Shown piece after piece: positions 25,781 to 32,756 of a stretch of DNA of 64,000 nucleotides; the first letter of the stretch is position 1; the number at the start of each line of letters is the position of its first letter. Origin of the DNA: Bacteroidota bacterium (GTDB lineage Bacteria; Bacteroidota; Bacteroidia; Bacteroidales; JAGONC01); contig JAPLDP010000036.1 of the NCBI GenBank assembly GCA_026391695.1, positions 11,631 through 75,630 on the forward strand, read 5' to 3'. A model generated the notes under the pieces. The model saw only the letters and a program-made list of their open reading frames with translations. It was not told where the DNA came from and made no database searches. A program made the translations under genes and the position numbers.

Positions 25781-26935
25781 TTACACGATCAGCTCACTGT
25801 TGGCTTGTAAAAATGCGATGATCTTATCAGGTTTTTTCGTTGATGTAGGTAAATTCAGGATGTGTTTCGATATATCGCAGGCAACAGGAATTTGTGCCTC
25901 ATCTACCTCCCACTTTTCGAGGCCTGATTCAACCGGATGAAGCGGCGAACAAAACCAGTCGCCGATTTCGATGTTGGCCTCTGCCGATTTCGATAAAAAT
26001 AAATCCTTGTCCTTGACCAGGAACGGATACCTGAGAAAGCAATGATCCGGATGCAGGCTCTCATCGACATAATATTTCCCATTCTTTCTTAGAAAGTCAG
26101 TATAAATCAAAGCATTGGATTTCCGAAGGCTAATCATTTCCTTATTCCGGGAAATGTTTTTTATACCTCTTTTAATCTGAATCGAACTGATGGATTTGAA
26201 ATAGTTTACCGGCATGTCGATGCCGGTAATCTCCCCTCCTGACGATGAGCCTATTATCAAATTGTTCCTACTCAGCCACCGGTATAGTTTCAACAACTGC
26301 CAGTATGTGTAAGGATTTATCAGTGTATCTTTAAAGAACAGCAGGGAACGAAGAATACACTTTTCAACAAAACCCGGTGCGACTAATGTATTATTGATGC
26401 AAACCATTTTTGACAGGAGCTCCGGATTATTAATTACAGTAAAGCCACCGATTCCGGTTGAAAACGGCTTGTTCCATTGTGTGGAGTAAAAAGCTGCATC
26501 GCAATATATGCCATTAGGCTTATCGTTATATGTTCCACCAAATCCATGTGCACAATCCTCAATAGCGTAAATGCTATTCTCTTTGGCCCATTTTGCGATC
26601 TCATCAACCTGCGACGACAGACCAAAAGTATTTTGTACGATGATGACCTTTGTTTTCGGTGTAACAGCATTTTTATACTGTGCCAATCCGGGATTTAAAG
26701 TCTTCCTGTCAATGTCAACATAAACAGGCTTTGCACCCAGATATTTTATTGCATTGGCCACCACCACACAGGTAAAGCCGGGTAAAATTATTTCATCCTC
26801 TCCGGCAACTTCCATTGCTTTCAGAATTGCATAGAGTGCCACCCTTCCTTTCCAGTAAAGAAAGATATTATCAGAACTTGACTGTAACACCTCCGCGATG
26901 GACTGTTTATATAATGCCTCTTTATGCATCGCCAT
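25781..26935 (-). CDS. DegT/DnrJ/EryC1/StrS-family sugar aminotransferase (PLP-dependent)
   Basis: 384-aa ORF with family-typical segments (ILPGFTCVVVANAI, VIIVQNTFG, AIEDCAHGFGG, FYSTQWNKPFSTGIGG containing the Lys). Confidence 0.8.
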   Translation of the reverse strand: MAMHKEALYKQSIAEVLQSSSDNIFLYWKGRVALYAILKAMEVAGEDEIILPGFTCVVVANAIKYLGAKPVYVDIDRKTLNPGLAQYKNAVTPKTKVIIVQNTFGLSSQVDEIAKWAKENSIYAIEDCAHGFGGTYNDKPNGIYCDAAFYSTQWNKPFSTGIGGFTVINNPELLSKMVCINNTLVAPGFVEKCILRSLLFFKDTLINPYTYWQLLKLYRWLSRNNLIIGSSSGGEITGIDMPVNYFKSISSIQIKRGIKNISRNKEMISLRKSNALIYTDFLRKNGKYYVDESLHPDHCFLRYPFLVKDKDLFLSKSAEANIEIGDWFCSPLHPVESGLEKWEVDEAQIPVACDISKHILNLPTSTKKPDKIIAFLQANSELIV

Positions 26936-27943
26936 TCATGAATGATGTAAAGTTCTATGCACGCTGAACAAACCGCAAAATGAACCTATGCCGTAAGAAA
27001 AATGCAGGATGTAAAAACCCCAGTAAAGATAAATGAATCTTGTACTCTTATCATGCATCTTTAAACAAGCAGAAATTACCACAATGTTGTAGAGTAAGAA
27101 AAACACGGCCGAAAACAGCAGGAACCACGTATTTAACAGAAAACCCAAAATAACAGGGATGACCAGTGAAAGGATAAACAGCAAGGGTACAAAATGCCGT
27201 AAACTTAATGAACTCACATGCTTTGTTATATATACGGTCACAATATTCCAGCGACCATTATTAAAATTATTTATCGCAAGCCCTTTGAAGTCTTCTCTTG
27301 CATAATAAGTAAAGCTTATCTCAGGTATCAAATATATTTTCCCTCCTGATCTTTTTAATCTTTTATTAAATTCAATGTCCTGATTTCTTATCAGATGGTC
27401 ATTAAATCCACCCATTTTTATCAGGGTTTCTTTTTTATAACAGCCAAATGCCACTGTGTCAACTTCCATAGGTTCTTTAGTCCCAATGCGGAAAAAACTG
27501 TCACCAACCCCTAAGGGTGCGGATAATAATTTTTTTATTGCATTCGCTTTGGGAGTTTTATTTATTGTATCTGTTATACAACTAACACCGACATTATCAG
27601 CTTGAAGGCTGATCAGGTTACTCACGAGAACCGAGATGTAATTTGACGGGTAGGATGCATGCGACCCTATAAGGATGATTATTTCTCCTTTGGCTTCTTT
27701 TGTTCCTATATTCACTGCATAGGAAACGTGCCTATAAGGATTATGTATCAGTTTAAAATTGGATAGATCTTTACATTTTTCTTTTATAATCCATTTGGTA
27801 TTATCTATACTTCCTCCATCAACAAATAAAACCTCAAGTAAATCACTGGGATAGTCCTGATTAATTATATCGGTTATTACCTGTTCGATGTACTTTTCCT
27901 CGTTATAAACAGGCATAATGACTGTTACCGTATATCTCATCAA
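26936..27943 (-). CDS. Glycosyltransferase family 2 with C-terminal transmembrane segments
   Basis: 335-aa ORF. The N-terminus VTVIMPVYNEEKYIEQ...FVDGGSIDNT is the GT2 DxD-type fold. The C-terminal ~90 aa are hydrophobic. It abuts the DegT gene with no spacer. Confidence 0.8.
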   Translation of the reverse strand: MMRYTVTVIMPVYNEEKYIEQVITDIINQDYPSDLLEVLFVDGGSIDNTKWIIKEKCKDLSNFKLIHNPYRHVSYAVNIGTKEAKGEIIILIGSHASYPSNYISVLVSNLISLQADNVGVSCITDTINKTPKANAIKKLLSAPLGVGDSFFRIGTKEPMEVDTVAFGCYKKETLIKMGGFNDHLIRNQDIEFNKRLKRSGGKIYLIPEISFTYYAREDFKGLAINNFNNGRWNIVTVYITKHVSSLSLRHFVPLLFILSLVIPVILGFLLNTWFLLFSAVFFLLYNIVVISACLKMHDKSTRFIYLYWGFYILHFSYGIGSFCGLFSVHRTLHHS

Positions 27944-28113: not shown

Positions 28114-29094
28114 ATGAAAATCGAGTATTACCTGCCTGAGAAGGTTTTCACCAATGATGAACTTGTCACCATCTTTCCGAATCTGGAAGCCTCAAGAGTG
28201 GAAGAAAAATTGGGCATCAGGCAGAGGCATATCGCTTCAGCGGATGAAACGGCCCTGGATCTTGCCTTTGAGGCAGCTAAAAAGGTGCTGAATGATTTTG
28301 ACAAAGAAAAAATTGATTTTATTCTCCTTTGTACCCAAAGCCCTGATTATTTTCTTCCCACCAGTGCCTGCCTGTTACAAAGTAAACTTGGTATAAAGAA
28401 AAGCGCAGGAGCTCTTGATTTCAATCTGGGTAGTTCCGGATTCATTTATGGGCTGGCTTTGGCAAAAGGCCTTCTGCAAAGTCAGGTTGCTTCAAATGTA
28501 CTTCTCGTTAATGCTGAAACATATACTAAACATATACATCCGGATGACCGGGCTAACCGGAGCATTTTTGGAGATGGAGCGGCAGCCACAATCATCGGGA
28601 ATTCTGACAAGGATATCATAAAAGAATTTGTTTTGGGAACAGATGGTAAAGGATTCAGCAACCTGATTGTCACAAATGGCGCAATGCGTCACCCCTTTGG
28701 CGAATCGACCAATGGAACCATCGATGAAAATGGCAACTTTTTTTCACCGGATCATCTTTACATGAATGGCCCGGAAATTTTTAATTTCACCATTGAAAAT
28801 ATACCATTGCTGGTGGAGAATGTTCTGAAAAAAAATGACCTGACTTTAGATCAGATCGATTATTTTATTTTTCATCAGGCCAATAAATATATGCTTGAGT
28901 ACCTAAGGAAAAAGATTAAAATACCACAGGAAAAATACTACAACGATATTCTCATGACTGGTAACACTGTGGCTACCATTCCTATTGCTTTAAAGGAATC
29001 AATCGACAGGGGAATTGTCCATCCCGGGAATAAAATCCTTTTAGCCGGGTTTGGTGTCGGATATTCCTGGGGAGCTACTGTCATCGAGTTATAA
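28114..29094 (+). CDS. KASIII (FabH)-like enzyme with Ser in place of the catalytic Cys; probable acyl-CoA:ACP transacylase
   Basis: 326-aa ORF that aligns along its length with FabH. The FabH motif AFDVAAAC(112)AGF corresponds here to ALDFNLGS(107)SGF (AGT at 28432-28434). The His (FIFHQAN) and Asn (GNTVAT) of the triad are retained. Confidence 0.8.
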   Translation: MKIEYYLPEKVFTNDELVTIFPNLEASRVEEKLGIRQRHIASADETALDLAFEAAKKVLNDFDKEKIDFILLCTQSPDYFLPTSACLLQSKLGIKKSAGALDFNLGSSGFIYGLALAKGLLQSQVASNVLLVNAETYTKHIHPDDRANRSIFGDGAAATIIGNSDKDIIKEFVLGTDGKGFSNLIVTNGAMRHPFGESTNGTIDENGNFFSPDHLYMNGPEIFNFTIENIPLLVENVLKKNDLTLDQIDYFIFHQANKYMLEYLRKKIKIPQEKYYNDILMTGNTVATIPIALKESIDRGIVHPGNKILLAGFGVGYSWGATVIEL

Positions 29095-29123: not shown

Positions 29124-29363
29124 ATGATGACCACAAAGGAGTTTATTAAAAAATTGACAGAAGCGCTGGAGTTTTCCGGTGAGACTATCATTGAGAATAC
29201 AAATTTACGTTCCATTAAAGGATATGATTCAATGTCGGTAATGACAATCATTGCCTTTGTGGATGAACATTTCTCAAAGAAGCTGACGGCCCGCCAGCTG
29301 GCAGCAATCACAACTGTCAGAAGCCTGAAAGAACTCATTGGATTGGAACATTTTACTGATTAA
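29124..29363 (+). CDS. Dedicated acyl/peptidyl carrier protein (DltC/ACP-like)
   Basis: 79-aa ORF with the phosphopantetheine attachment motif GYDSMSVMTIIAFV. It lies 30 nt after the KASIII gene. Confidence 0.8.
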   Translation: MMTTKEFIKKLTEALEFSGETIIENTNLRSIKGYDSMSVMTIIAFVDEHFSKKLTARQLAAITTVRSLKELIGLEHFTD

Positions 29364-29376
29364 GGACTGAATACCT

Positions 29377-29511
29377 ATGAATGATCCTTTCTCACTGGAA
29401 AGAAAAAGAATAGTCATCACCGGCGCATCATCCGGGATTGGAAGGTGGGTGGCTATTGAGTGGTTAAGGAAAGGAACTTCTTTACTGAATGGAGGCTATT
29501 CAGCCAAATAA
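29377..29511 (+). pseudogene. Short-chain dehydrogenase/reductase (FabG-like) remnant with an internal in-frame deletion, leaving a 44-codon mini-ORF
   Basis: Manual translation gives MNDPFSLERKRIVITGASSGIGRWVAIEWLRKGTSLLNGGYSAK*. It contains the N-terminal Rossmann motif TGASSGIG and an SDR C-terminus-like tail (..NGGYSAK). The ~200 aa normally between them are missing. Confidence 0.65.
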
Positions 29512-29547: not shown

Positions 29548-31059
29548 ATGTTTTTCACTTCATTTCATTTCTTCATCTTCTTTCCGGTAGTTGTTCTTAT
29601 TTATTATTTTATCCCGCACCGATTCCGCTGGATTTGGCTTTTACTCACCAGTTCTGTCTTTTATCTGGCCTTCAGCTGGAAATACCTGCTTCTGTTCTTT
29701 GGTGTTATACTTGTCAATTATTTCATCGGAATCAAAATATATACTTCTGACGGGCATTTCAGAAAAAAGCTCTATATCACCGGAATCATCGTCAATATCC
29801 TTATCCTTTGCTTCTTTAAGTACTTCAATTATTTAGCTATTGATTTTACCAAAATTGCAGAGTTCCTTCATCTTCATTATCCCGATCAATTCGTGAACAT
29901 CATCCTGCCTCTTGGATTATCCTATTTAATTTTTACGGCCATTTCATATTTGATCGATATTAAGCGACAGGAGATACATTCTGAAAGACACATAGGTATT
30001 CTGGCTTCGTATTTTCTGTTTTTCCCGAAAGTGGCACAGGGTCCTATTGAAAGAGCAGGACACGTATTGCCTCAGTTTCACAAGAAGCATCATTTTGATT
30101 ATGATGGGTTTACTGCAGGACTGAAACTGATGGCATGGGGATTTTTTAAGAAACTGGTCATGGCCGACAGTCTTGCAGTATTTGTGAATGCCGTGTATTC
30201 CAACCCTCAAAACAGCCATGGGCTGGTTTTAATAATCGGCACCGTATGTTTTGCTTTTCAACTCTATGCCGACTTTTCAGGTTATACCGACATAGCTCTC
30301 GGAGCGGCACAGGTATTAGGATTTGACCTCATGCAGAACTTTCGCAGACCATATCTTGCCCGATCGGTCAGGGACTTCTGGACCCGCTGGCATATTAGCC
30401 TCTCATCATGGTGCAGCGATTATGTTTTTCTGCCTATCGTTGAGCATACCTATGATCTTAAAAGAAAGCTAAAAAAAGTCAAATTTCTTCACAGACTCAG
30501 TGCAGAAAAGATAATGTATGTAGCAGCAACTCTTACAACTTTCATCATAATTGGCATTTGGCATGGAGTAGGATGGAATTACCTTATAGTAGGTCTATTA
30601 TTCGGCTTTTATGTCAGCTTTGACATGCTTACGAAAAACCTCAGCAGGAAGGTAAACATTAAAACTGGTATTACAAAACGTCCTCTTCTTTTTCAAAATA
30701 TCCAGATCGTAACGACTTTCTTTATGCTCTGTCTCCCATGGATTTTCTTCAGGGCAAATACGATGAATGATGCGGTTATCATGATCCAAAACCTGTTTCA
30801 GGGATGGTCATTACAGGAAATAAAAAAATCCTTTGTTTTATTATATCATAACGGGATAAATGAGCGGTTGATTATTATCATGTTTTTGTCAACCCTGTTG
30901 CTGATTATAACAGACATTTTATCAGAGAAAAGAGACATTTTACTGAGGATTGCTGAGAAGCCGTTATTTATCCGGTGGGCCATCTATTACCTGCTCATCA
31001 TAGCAATAATTGCTTTCAGCACGACTGAAAGTAAACAGTTTATATATATGCAGTTCTAA
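29548..31059 (+). CDS. MBOAT-family membrane O-acyltransferase (DltB/AlgI-like)
   Basis: 503-aa polytopic ORF with the signature FWTRWHISLSSW and a second conserved His in IGIWHGVGWNY. Confidence 0.85.
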   Translation: MFFTSFHFFIFFPVVVLIYYFIPHRFRWIWLLLTSSVFYLAFSWKYLLLFFGVILVNYFIGIKIYTSDGHFRKKLYITGIIVNILILCFFKYFNYLAIDFTKIAEFLHLHYPDQFVNIILPLGLSYLIFTAISYLIDIKRQEIHSERHIGILASYFLFFPKVAQGPIERAGHVLPQFHKKHHFDYDGFTAGLKLMAWGFFKKLVMADSLAVFVNAVYSNPQNSHGLVLIIGTVCFAFQLYADFSGYTDIALGAAQVLGFDLMQNFRRPYLARSVRDFWTRWHISLSSWCSDYVFLPIVEHTYDLKRKLKKVKFLHRLSAEKIMYVAATLTTFIIIGIWHGVGWNYLIVGLLFGFYVSFDMLTKNLSRKVNIKTGITKRPLLFQNIQIVTTFFMLCLPWIFFRANTMNDAVIMIQNLFQGWSLQEIKKSFVLLYHNGINERLIIIMFLSTLLLIITDILSEKRDILLRIAEKPLFIRWAIYYLLIIAIIAFSTTESKQFIYMQF

Positions 31060-32009
31060 TGCAAACACGGTTTAAAGAATTATGTATTAAACTTTTTCTA
31101 TTTCTGCTTCCTTTTATGATGCTATTCTCCTGGATTGAATATCAGGCAAGAAGGCTTCCAAATAGCTATGAGCAGAAAAAAAGAAGTTTTGAGAGCCAGC
31201 GTCAATCAATAAAAATACTGGTTCTTGGATCGTCACATGCCTCCAAGGGAATAAATCCCGCATTTTTCTCCTGTACCGGCTTCAATTTCAGCAACAGCTC
31301 ACAATCGTTGTATCATGACACACAACTCTGTTTAAAATATATCGATGAACTCCCTCAGCTTAAAGGAGTTATTATTGATATCTCGTACATTTCACTCTAT
31401 TATGATCTGAAGGATACACCGGAGAAATGGAGAGATTATTTTTACTATCATTATTTCGGCATTAAGCGGCCTTCACTGGATCTGTGCGATCCAAAAGGGG
31501 TGACATATACTGCTCTTTATACCAGGGGATTTATCACTGACCTTGTATTGTGCAGGATCGATCCCAAAAAGGAATTTGGTGATATACAGCCGACAGGTTG
31601 GGAAAGAGTACCGCACCCTGCTGACAGCAGTGTCATTTCAGATTCTGCAGGATTTCAGCGGGCGACATTTCATAACTCATTGATCATCAAACAGAATTTT
31701 ATTTTAAATTGCGGTTACCTGGAGGATATGATCCGTCTCCTGCAGAAGAGAAAGATTGCCGTCTGTCTGGTCAGTCTTCCTGTTTATAAAACCTATTCGA
31801 AATTTATGGATCCGGATATTGAACGGCAAAACCACCAGTACATTGCAGAGTTATGCCAAAAATATAGCACTGAATACTATGATTTTTCTACGGACGCAAG
31901 TTTCACAAAAGAAGATTTCAGCGATAATGACCATTTGAGTATTTCCGGAGCAGAAAAAATCAGCCGGATCCTTGACGGGTTAATTATATCGAAGCTATGT
32001 AATCAGTGA
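31059..32009 (+). CDS. DltD/AlgJ-like SGNH-type extracytoplasmic acyl-transfer protein
   Basis: 316-aa ORF whose start overlaps the MBOAT stop (TAATG). It has an N-terminal TM anchor, a block-I-like VLGSSHASKG and a C-terminal DxxH (DNDHLS). Confidence 0.6.
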   Translation: MQTRFKELCIKLFLFLLPFMMLFSWIEYQARRLPNSYEQKKRSFESQRQSIKILVLGSSHASKGINPAFFSCTGFNFSNSSQSLYHDTQLCLKYIDELPQLKGVIIDISYISLYYDLKDTPEKWRDYFYYHYFGIKRPSLDLCDPKGVTYTALYTRGFITDLVLCRIDPKKEFGDIQPTGWERVPHPADSSVISDSAGFQRATFHNSLIIKQNFILNCGYLEDMIRLLQKRKIAVCLVSLPVYKTYSKFMDPDIERQNHQYIAELCQKYSTEYYDFSTDASFTKEDFSDNDHLSISGAEKISRILDGLIISKLCNQ

Positions 32010-32072: not shown

Positions 32073-32756
32073 ATGAAAGATTATTACAGTGCGAAGCTTT
32101 CAGCCATGAGTCTGTGGCAATGTTATGAGCTGGCGCCACCGCGCATTCAGCAATATATGAAAGCGGAAGCCGACCATGTGGTAAACAACATACACAACAA
32201 TGATCTGGTGCTGGAACTGGGATGCGGTTATGGCCGGTTATTGCCATTTTTTGCCGCGAAAGCAAGGATGGTGATTGGCATCGATACCTCCCGTTCAAGT
32301 ATTTTACTGGGTCGTAAGCTGCTCTCAGATTTATCGAATTGTATGCTGCTGCAAATGAATGCCATACACCTCGCCTTCCCCGATAATATGTTCGATGTGG
32401 TTGTTTGCATTCAGAACGGGATATCGGCATTCCATGTGGACCAGGAATTACTCATTAGGGAGAGCATTCGTGTGACCAAAAACGGGGGAAAGGTACTCTT
32501 TTCAAGTTATTCCGAAAAGATCTGGCAACAACGTTTGGAATGGTTTCACAGGCAGTCGGCTGCCGGCCTCCTCGGTGAAATAGATACGAATAAAACAAGG
32601 GAAGGTACAATCGTATGTCATGACGGATTTACTGCCACCACTGTCGGACCGGAACAATTCAAAACTCTGACAAAGCCAATTAAAAATATCAAGGTGAATA
32701 TCGTCGAAGTGGATGAGTCGAGCCTGTTCTGTGAGATAATTCCGGTTAAAAAGTAA
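32073..32756 (+). CDS. Class I SAM-dependent methyltransferase
   Basis: 227-aa ORF with SAM-binding motif I VLELGCGYGRL and post-I IGIDTS. Confidence 0.8.
   Translation: MKDYYSAKLSAMSLWQCYELAPPRIQQYMKAEADHVVNNIHNNDLVLELGCGYGRLLPFFAAKARMVIGIDTSRSSILLGRKLLSDLSNCMLLQMNAIHLAFPDNMFDVVVCIQNGISAFHVDQELLIRESIRVTKNGGKVLFSSYSEKIWQQRLEWFHRQSAAGLLGEIDTNKTREGTIVCHDGFTATTVGPEQFKTLTKPIKNIKVNIVEVDESSLFCEIIPVKK

Follow-up and report, generated by a model that had tools for sequence, protein, structure and literature searches.

A serine at the nucleophile position of a KASIII-like protein, with loss of the adjacent ketoreductase gene, in a Dlt-like cassette of a Bacteroidota polysaccharide locus

The window, a stretch of 64,000 nucleotides from a Bacteroidota contig (JAPLDP010000036.1), contains at positions 28,114–29,094 of the plus strand a gene for a KASIII (FabH)-like protein of 326 residues, hereafter P0001. 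Two Pfam domains were detected in it (ACP_syn_III, PF08545, E-value 9e-21; ACP_syn_III_C, PF08541, E-value 5e-27), and its score against the NCBIfam model PRK09352 was 268.8 bits, above the cut-off of 249. The gene is followed on the same strand by a gene (29,124–29,363) for a dedicated carrier protein of 79 residues (P0002; PP-binding, PF00550, E-value 1.9e-6), the attachment Ser of which lies in the motif GYDSM, and by the remnant of a 3-oxoacyl-ACP reductase (SDR/KR) gene (29,377–29,511), which was detected by tblastn. Then come genes for a DltB-like membrane acyltransferase of the MBOAT type (29,548–31,059) and for a DltD/DUF1574/LB_356-like protein (31,059–32,009), the start of the latter overlapping the stop codon of the former. 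A class I SAM methyltransferase gene is located directly downstream (32,073–32,756, plus strand). Genes for a DegT-type aminotransferase and a GT2 glycosyltransferase are divergently oriented (25,781–27,943, minus strand) and provide a polysaccharide-locus context. The methyltransferase gene and the divergent genes were also found at a sister locus, L001, a JGI contig of 7 kb on which the genes follow one another as in the window.

The MBOAT protein matched DltB (PDB 6bug) with an E-value of 3e-24, its RWHIS motif being aligned to RWHMS. Two of its residues, His282 in RWHIS and His339 in WHG, were invariant in nine homologues, and its score against TIGR04091 (151.8 bits) was far below the cut-off of 375. 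At L001 (3,741–5,252), the public MBOAT gene call begins 115 codons late (388 vs 503 residues); the full-length frame is open there and 93% identical to the window MBOAT. For the DltD-like protein, the Pfam matches were weak and below the cut-offs (DltD, 21.9 bits vs 22.7; DUF1574, 27.9 bits vs 29.1), and no sequence match was found in the PDB; its residues Ser59, Asp289 and His292 were invariant in nine homologues. When an AMP-binding (DltA-type) gene was sought in the cassettes of the window, of L001 and of a further relative, L009, none was found, and the KASIII-like gene stands in that place. Elsewhere in the genome of the window, a separate Cys-type FabH, 31% identical to P0001, is encoded, as is FabD.

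P0001 was aligned by HMMER with solved KASIII structures. Residue 107, encoded by AGT at 28,432–28,434 of the plus strand, is a Ser that aligns with the active-site Cys of 3gwa, 4efi and 1ub7 (NLGSSGFIYGL in P0001, against NLGCSGYVYGL in 3gwa and AGCPGWIYAL in 1ub7). The other triad residues, His254 (in FHQAN) and Asn284 (in GNT), are present, and they were invariant both in the 19 other Ser sequences and in the 90 Cys sequences compared. The preliminary description of this DNA had claimed just such a replacement of the KASIII nucleophile by Ser with retention of the remaining triad, and in both respects it was right. In condensing enzymes, the nucleophile is located at the N-terminus of a helix. 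The same place is occupied by residue 107 in the AlphaFold model of P0001 (pLDDT 90.7), at the N-terminus of helix 106–122. The best 50 Foldseek matches of this model in the PDB were all of the FabH type, the top one being 3gwa (TM 0.96, 45% identity).

When P0001 was compared with the columns conserved to 93% or more among the 90 Cys relatives, it departed from them only at C107S and at a lineage-specific deletion of one residue. The deletion is situated three residues past Asn284 (GNTVATI, 28,963–28,983, plus strand), where the family motif GNTVS[AS]T, for example GNTVSAT, is shortened to GNTVAT. It is also present in P0011, the close homologue of P0001 considered below. Arg146, equivalent to the CoA-binding Arg151 of FabH, is retained. 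At residue 24 (28,183–28,185), a Trp is found in 82 of the 90 Cys relatives, a Leu in the window lineage and a Gly in an independent Ser sequence, L107; this residue may belong to the CoA-binding region.

P0011, which is 98% identical to P0001, occurs on two more assemblies, JGI 3300047202 (L001) and Logan SRR35914825 (the contig L002). Both also carry Ser at position 107, with the codon AGC where the window has AGT. The KAS genes of the window and of L001 differ by 33 synonymous and 8 non-synonymous changes (dS 0.17, dN/dS 0.062), against about 116 non-synonymous ones predicted for a neutral gene. This dN/dS value is the lowest of the cassette, the others being 0.067 for the ACP gene, 0.109 for the DltD-like gene, 0.115 for the MBOAT gene and 0.123 for the methyltransferase gene, and in both lineages the open reading frames of the cassette are intact, free of frameshifts and stop codons. 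Since the Ser is shared with differing codons and the gene evolves at a dN/dS of 0.062, residue 107 results neither from an error nor from decay. The three independent assemblies thus dispose of the sequencing error or very recent mutation against which the preliminary description had warned.

The substitution is therefore fixed and under constraint, and Ser107 predates the split of the window lineage from that of L001 and L002. As the most closely related Cys sequences, those of L008 and L009, use TGC, the codons point to TGC, AGC and AGT as the likely mutational path. No close orthologue of P0001 by which to date the change was found among 40 related genomes. In a genome of the same genus, only Cys paralogues were found, 53% and 48% identical to P0001. 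The two are KASIII genes that lie in tandem behind an MBOAT gene (L123; G401:C13:58000-65697), an arrangement that differs from that of the window and includes no orthologue.

In order to place the Ser among its relatives, homologues were collected and a maximum-likelihood tree was built. Position 107 is a Cys in 117 of the 119 best homologues of P0001 (60–72% identity once the two Ser sequences are set aside) and in each of the 150 representatives of clusters at 50% identity. In the tree, the window sequence and P0011 are nested in a Bacteroidota clade (support 95), the other eight members of which are Cys. L009 (69% identity) is the sole relative found with the same order of KAS, ACP, MBOAT and DltD-like genes and no KR gene, and it has a Cys. 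Contrary to what the preliminary description had expected, the Ser is thus not conserved in the cassette-associated clade, and the idea that it is typical of this clade was discarded. This comes close to the uniform Cys in equivalent cassettes that would refute the preliminary description, the exception being the sister lineage, which shares the Ser and keeps it under selection.

The first pattern used in the search for related loci contained NLGCSG and was hence biased towards Cys; to compensate, Ser-specific DNA patterns at the motif were added. These patterns gave 11 genome loci, all from Acidobacteriota, and 17 metagenome loci. At least three independent Cys/Ser changes are needed in the tree, in the window lineage, in L107 and in an Acidobacteriota clade, where 18 Ser sequences stand with three Cys sequences (L053, L060 and L073). 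Among the Ser enzymes, the codons AGT, AGC, TCT, TCA and TCG are all in use, with invariant His and Asn, and from these five codons it follows that the Ser is of long standing. The Ser variant of this KASIII family is rare, recurrent and selected. The Ser-type clade L090–L117, from Acidobacteriota and soil metagenomes, lies beside an ACP gene and an LbH acyltransferase or MBOAT gene in polysaccharide loci. A KAS-ACP-KR unit, with a KAS 57% identical to the window enzyme, was also seen on a contig binned as a Methanosarcinales archaeon (L019, CAZSRD010000056.1), which is due either to horizontal transfer or to mis-binning.

The remnant between the ACP and MBOAT genes of the window was then compared with complete KR genes. 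Its 44 codons comprise 37 N-terminal residues, including TGASSGIG, joined in frame to the C-terminal NGGYSAK, about 210 codons having been deleted. Residues 1–37 matched the KR of L008 by tblastn (E-value 2.7e-11, 68% identity), and the last seven residues resemble the KR C-terminus DGGYSVR. At the sister locus L001, even the remnant is gone and the region is 151 nucleotides shorter. In the nearest Cys relatives (P0016, P0019 at L008 and P0022 at L003), the gene order is KAS-ACP-KR; at L062, L029 and L027, it is KAS-ACP-KR-MBOAT, with a DltD-like gene after the MBOAT gene at L062. From the remnant and these gene orders, it was concluded that the ancestor had the order KAS-ACP-KR-MBOAT-DltD-like. 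The Ser lineage has lost the KR gene and kept the remaining genes of the cassette. This deletion, which the preliminary description had missed, is the decisive context for Ser107.

A similar context was observed at other loci. Where the flanking DNA was sufficient, a KR gene was found within 3 kb at 56 of 69 Cys loci, against none of 11 Ser loci. Cys loci are usually arranged as KAS-ACP-KR or KR-KAS within polysaccharide loci, and the simplest reading of the typical KAS-ACP-KR unit is that it would provide a 3-hydroxyacyl-ACP from which a sugar is acylated. The 11 Ser loci lie beside an ACP gene and an MBOAT or hexapeptide acyltransferase gene, with flippases and glycosyltransferases near, so that the Ser recurs in contexts devoid of KR. 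L053, a Cys member inside the Acidobacteriota Ser clade, has a KR gene directly upstream. With phylogenetic control, the association of Ser with the absence of KR comes down to two or three independent contrasts and for this reason cannot reach significance; it never runs in the opposite direction. L009, which has a Cys and lacks a KR gene, indicates that the loss of KR does not require a Ser.

For most MBOAT/DltD-like gene pairs in the phylum, neither a KAS nor an ACP gene lies closer than about 7 kb, so that the repeated adjacency is what points to a functional coupling of KAS and ACP with the MBOAT protein. Such pairs (L118–L122) turned up in 5 genomes when 400 of the phylum were sampled, and they indicate that the module formed by the two genes occurs more generally than the cassette fed by KAS. 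In the literature searched, nothing relevant was found on a characterised KASIII-ACP-MBOAT-DltD cassette or on 3-hydroxybutanoyl glycan loci with FabH.

The nearest known counterpart of the cassette is the Dlt pathway of teichoic acid D-alanylation (DltA-DltC-DltB-DltD-DltX). Both include a small carrier and an MBOAT protein, and the protein with Ser, Asp and His that the cassette encodes may be a counterpart of DltD; the same logic would apply, a carrier-bound acyl group being passed via a membrane enzyme to an extracytoplasmic polymer. However, a KASIII-like enzyme replaces the DltA ligase here, the host is Gram-negative and the genes lie in a polysaccharide locus; D-alanine is an unlikely acyl group for the cassette.

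As for the enzyme itself, FabH/KASIII proteins (E. coli FabH; Burkholderia pseudomallei 3gwa) have the fold, the Pfam domains and the His and Asn residues in common with P0001. Unlike them, P0001 has a Ser for the nucleophilic Cys (Cys112 in E. coli FabH) and is encoded by an accessory gene with its own ACP in a glycan locus, and the deletion of the KR gene argues indirectly against a Claisen condensation. In KASIII enzymes, the Cys carries the acyl primer, and the His and Asn drive the decarboxylation of malonyl-ACP. The loading modules of polyene PKSs contain KS^S domains, in which the Cys-to-Ser change leaves decarboxylation only (PMC12843615, PMC4540446). The KS^S domains (NysA, AmphA, PimS0, RimA) and the related KS^Q resemble P0001 in their thiolase fold, in the replacement of the nucleophilic Cys and in the conservation of the residues for decarboxylation; by analogy, KS^S and P0001 would both be placed where a carrier needs to be primed and not extended. 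KS^S are, however, KS I/II-type domains (Cys-His-His) in the modular type I PKSs of actinomycetes, whereas P0001 is a free-standing KASIII protein of the Cys-His-Asn type, has a discrete ACP, belongs to a Bacteroidota polysaccharide locus and is a putative decarboxylase.

DpsC, CerJ and ChlB3 also have the KASIII fold and load or transfer acyl groups instead of elongating them, and the nucleophile of DpsC is reportedly a Ser, as Jackson et al. are said to have found in 2018. These KSIII-like acyltransferases have an Asp in place of the Asn, and in CerJ and ChlB3 a His-Asp pair activates the nucleophile (PMC9573744); they act in actinomycete secondary metabolism on aromatic polyketides, whereas P0001 keeps Asn284, as in the FabH pair. 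None of the three was among the best 60 PDB sequence matches or the best 50 Foldseek matches of P0001, which were all FabH-type, PqsD or BioZ. Membership of P0001 in the DpsC type, as suggested in the preliminary description, was rejected on these grounds. The C116S mutant of CerJ wholly loses its malonyl-transfer activity (PMC9573744), which further weakens the comparison. With its FabH-like Ser-His-Asn arrangement, P0001 would find a better analogy in a KS^S loader than in DpsC.

Thus, by analogy with KS^S, we propose with a probability of roughly one half that an enzyme which once condensed now supplies short acyl-ACP without condensing, likeliest as a malonyl-ACP decarboxylase feeding a Dlt-like O-acylation module. 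A non-condensing enzyme is favoured by the retained His-Asn pair, the missing KR and the presence of FabD and of a separate Cys FabH in the genome; the Cys-to-Ser change, the KR deletion and the purifying selection on the other genes suggest that condensation was most likely lost. The role of non-condensing loader of the neighbouring carrier, which had been put forward together with the DpsC-type identity, accordingly keeps its place as the most plausible function suggested by the context. Against the proposed decarboxylase stands work of Witkowski (1999) on the animal FAS, in which the Cys-to-Ser change reportedly did not raise the decarboxylase activity. According to one report on NysA, the critical residue is not the serine of KS^S (PMC4540446), and a housekeeping FabG could take over from the lost KR; both points also count against this proposal.

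In the model of the preliminary description, Ser107 is a true nucleophile that passes the acyl group from acyl-CoA to the holo-carrier, malonyl-ACP taking no part. FabH enzymes possess an intrinsic acyl-CoA:ACP transacylase activity, and the Ser nucleophile attributed to DpsC would be a precedent. Moreover, something must load the ACP in a cassette that has no DltA-like ligase, the Ser enzymes always lie beside an ACP and an acyltransferase and never beside a KR, and the Arg146 noted above is kept. We nevertheless consider a transacylase of this kind unlikely. A simple transacylation does not call for His and Asn to be so strictly conserved throughout the Ser lineages, the residue at 284 is the Asn of FabH and not the Asp of the KSIII-like acyltransferases, the CerJ Ser mutant is inactive (PMC9573744), and the best 50 fold matches are FabH-type, with DpsC, CerJ and ChlB3 absent. 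The one-residue deletion is the sole candidate for a compensating change near the Ser, and PDB entry 9w96, judging by its title, is an engineered Cys-to-Ser KASIII crystallised with glutaryl-CoA bound.

It is quite improbable that Ser107 still supports a slower Claisen condensation, yielding acetoacetyl-ACP or, via a housekeeping FabG, 3-hydroxybutanoyl-ACP, and that the substitution is nearly neutral. Such tolerance would agree with the interchange of Cys and Ser in the one Acidobacteriota clade that includes L053, L060 and L073, with the conserved His and Asn, and with DpsC, which is said to condense with its Ser nucleophile; L009 suggests that a cassette devoid of KR can work with a Cys. 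But the Cys of all 90 relatives in the Cys clade and all 150 cluster representatives means that the position is not free to vary, no KR accompanies the Ser at the 11 loci with enough flanking DNA while one accompanies the Cys at most of the others, and the dedicated KR was deleted while all other genes of the cassette were kept. In ketosynthases, furthermore, the Cys-to-Ser change impairs condensation (PMC12843615). We would be equally surprised if the enzyme were inactivated, the KAS and ACP being relics or a mere scaffold and the MBOAT/DltD-like pair taking another donor, as the pairs free of KAS and ACP do. These pairs are the majority in the phylum, the loss of KR does show a partial decay of the pathway, and in CerJ the same change abolishes activity (PMC9573744). 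Relics are nonetheless hard to reconcile with the two lowest dN/dS values of the cassette falling on KAS and ACP, with reading frames intact in both lineages, with selection that kept these two genes when the KR was removed, or with an old Acidobacteriota Ser clade in which His and Asn are invariant.

Under the proposed decarboxylase, the sequence of events could be as follows. The ancestral enzyme would have condensed acyl-CoA with malonyl-ACP on the dedicated carrier protein, and the adjacent KR would then have given a 3-hydroxyacyl-ACP for the acylation of a surface polysaccharide. The nucleophilic Cys gave way to Ser through the change of one base, probably TGC to AGC, and the KR gene was deleted while the KAS, carrier, MBOAT and DltD-like genes remained under purifying selection. 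With its His-Asn pair, the enzyme would probably decarboxylate FabD-made malonyl-ACP to acetyl-ACP in the manner of KS^S loading domains; a less likely alternative for this step is that the carrier receives its acyl group from CoA. With the acyl-carrier as donor, the DltB-like MBOAT and the DltD-like protein would then O-acylate a glycan outside the cytoplasmic membrane. What the enzyme catalyses, which acyl group is involved and how the MBOAT module is functionally linked to it are all inferred from this context. As the change to Ser coincides with the deletion of KR, Ser107 probably marks a switch in the decoration of the polysaccharide, from the building of a four-carbon acyl group to the supply of a simpler one. 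A bolder and distinctly tentative claim is that a single-base Cys-to-Ser change makes a free-standing KASIII a malonyl-ACP decarboxylase, that the Dlt-like pathway was thereby re-programmed from 3-hydroxyacyl to acetyl groups, and that this was repeated in Bacteroidota and Acidobacteriota.

To our knowledge, no direct demonstration has been given of the acyl donor that most bacterial MBOAT glycan O-acyltransferases (AlgI/PatA type) use on the cytoplasmic side. If the decarboxylase reading is true, some of these enzymes use an acyl-carrier protein and not acyl-CoA as donor. The locus resembles a natural experiment in which the nucleophile was changed and the KR deleted while the other parts were kept under selection, and S107 against S107C, with and without KR, offers a testable pair for how one base change can alter the way in which a surface glycan is acylated. 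It also calls for caution in annotation, since proteins named ketoacyl-ACP synthase III in such loci may not condense. An MBOAT/DltD-like pair fed by a dedicated ACP and a KASIII-like enzyme would extend the logic of the Dlt pathway to Gram-negative polysaccharides.
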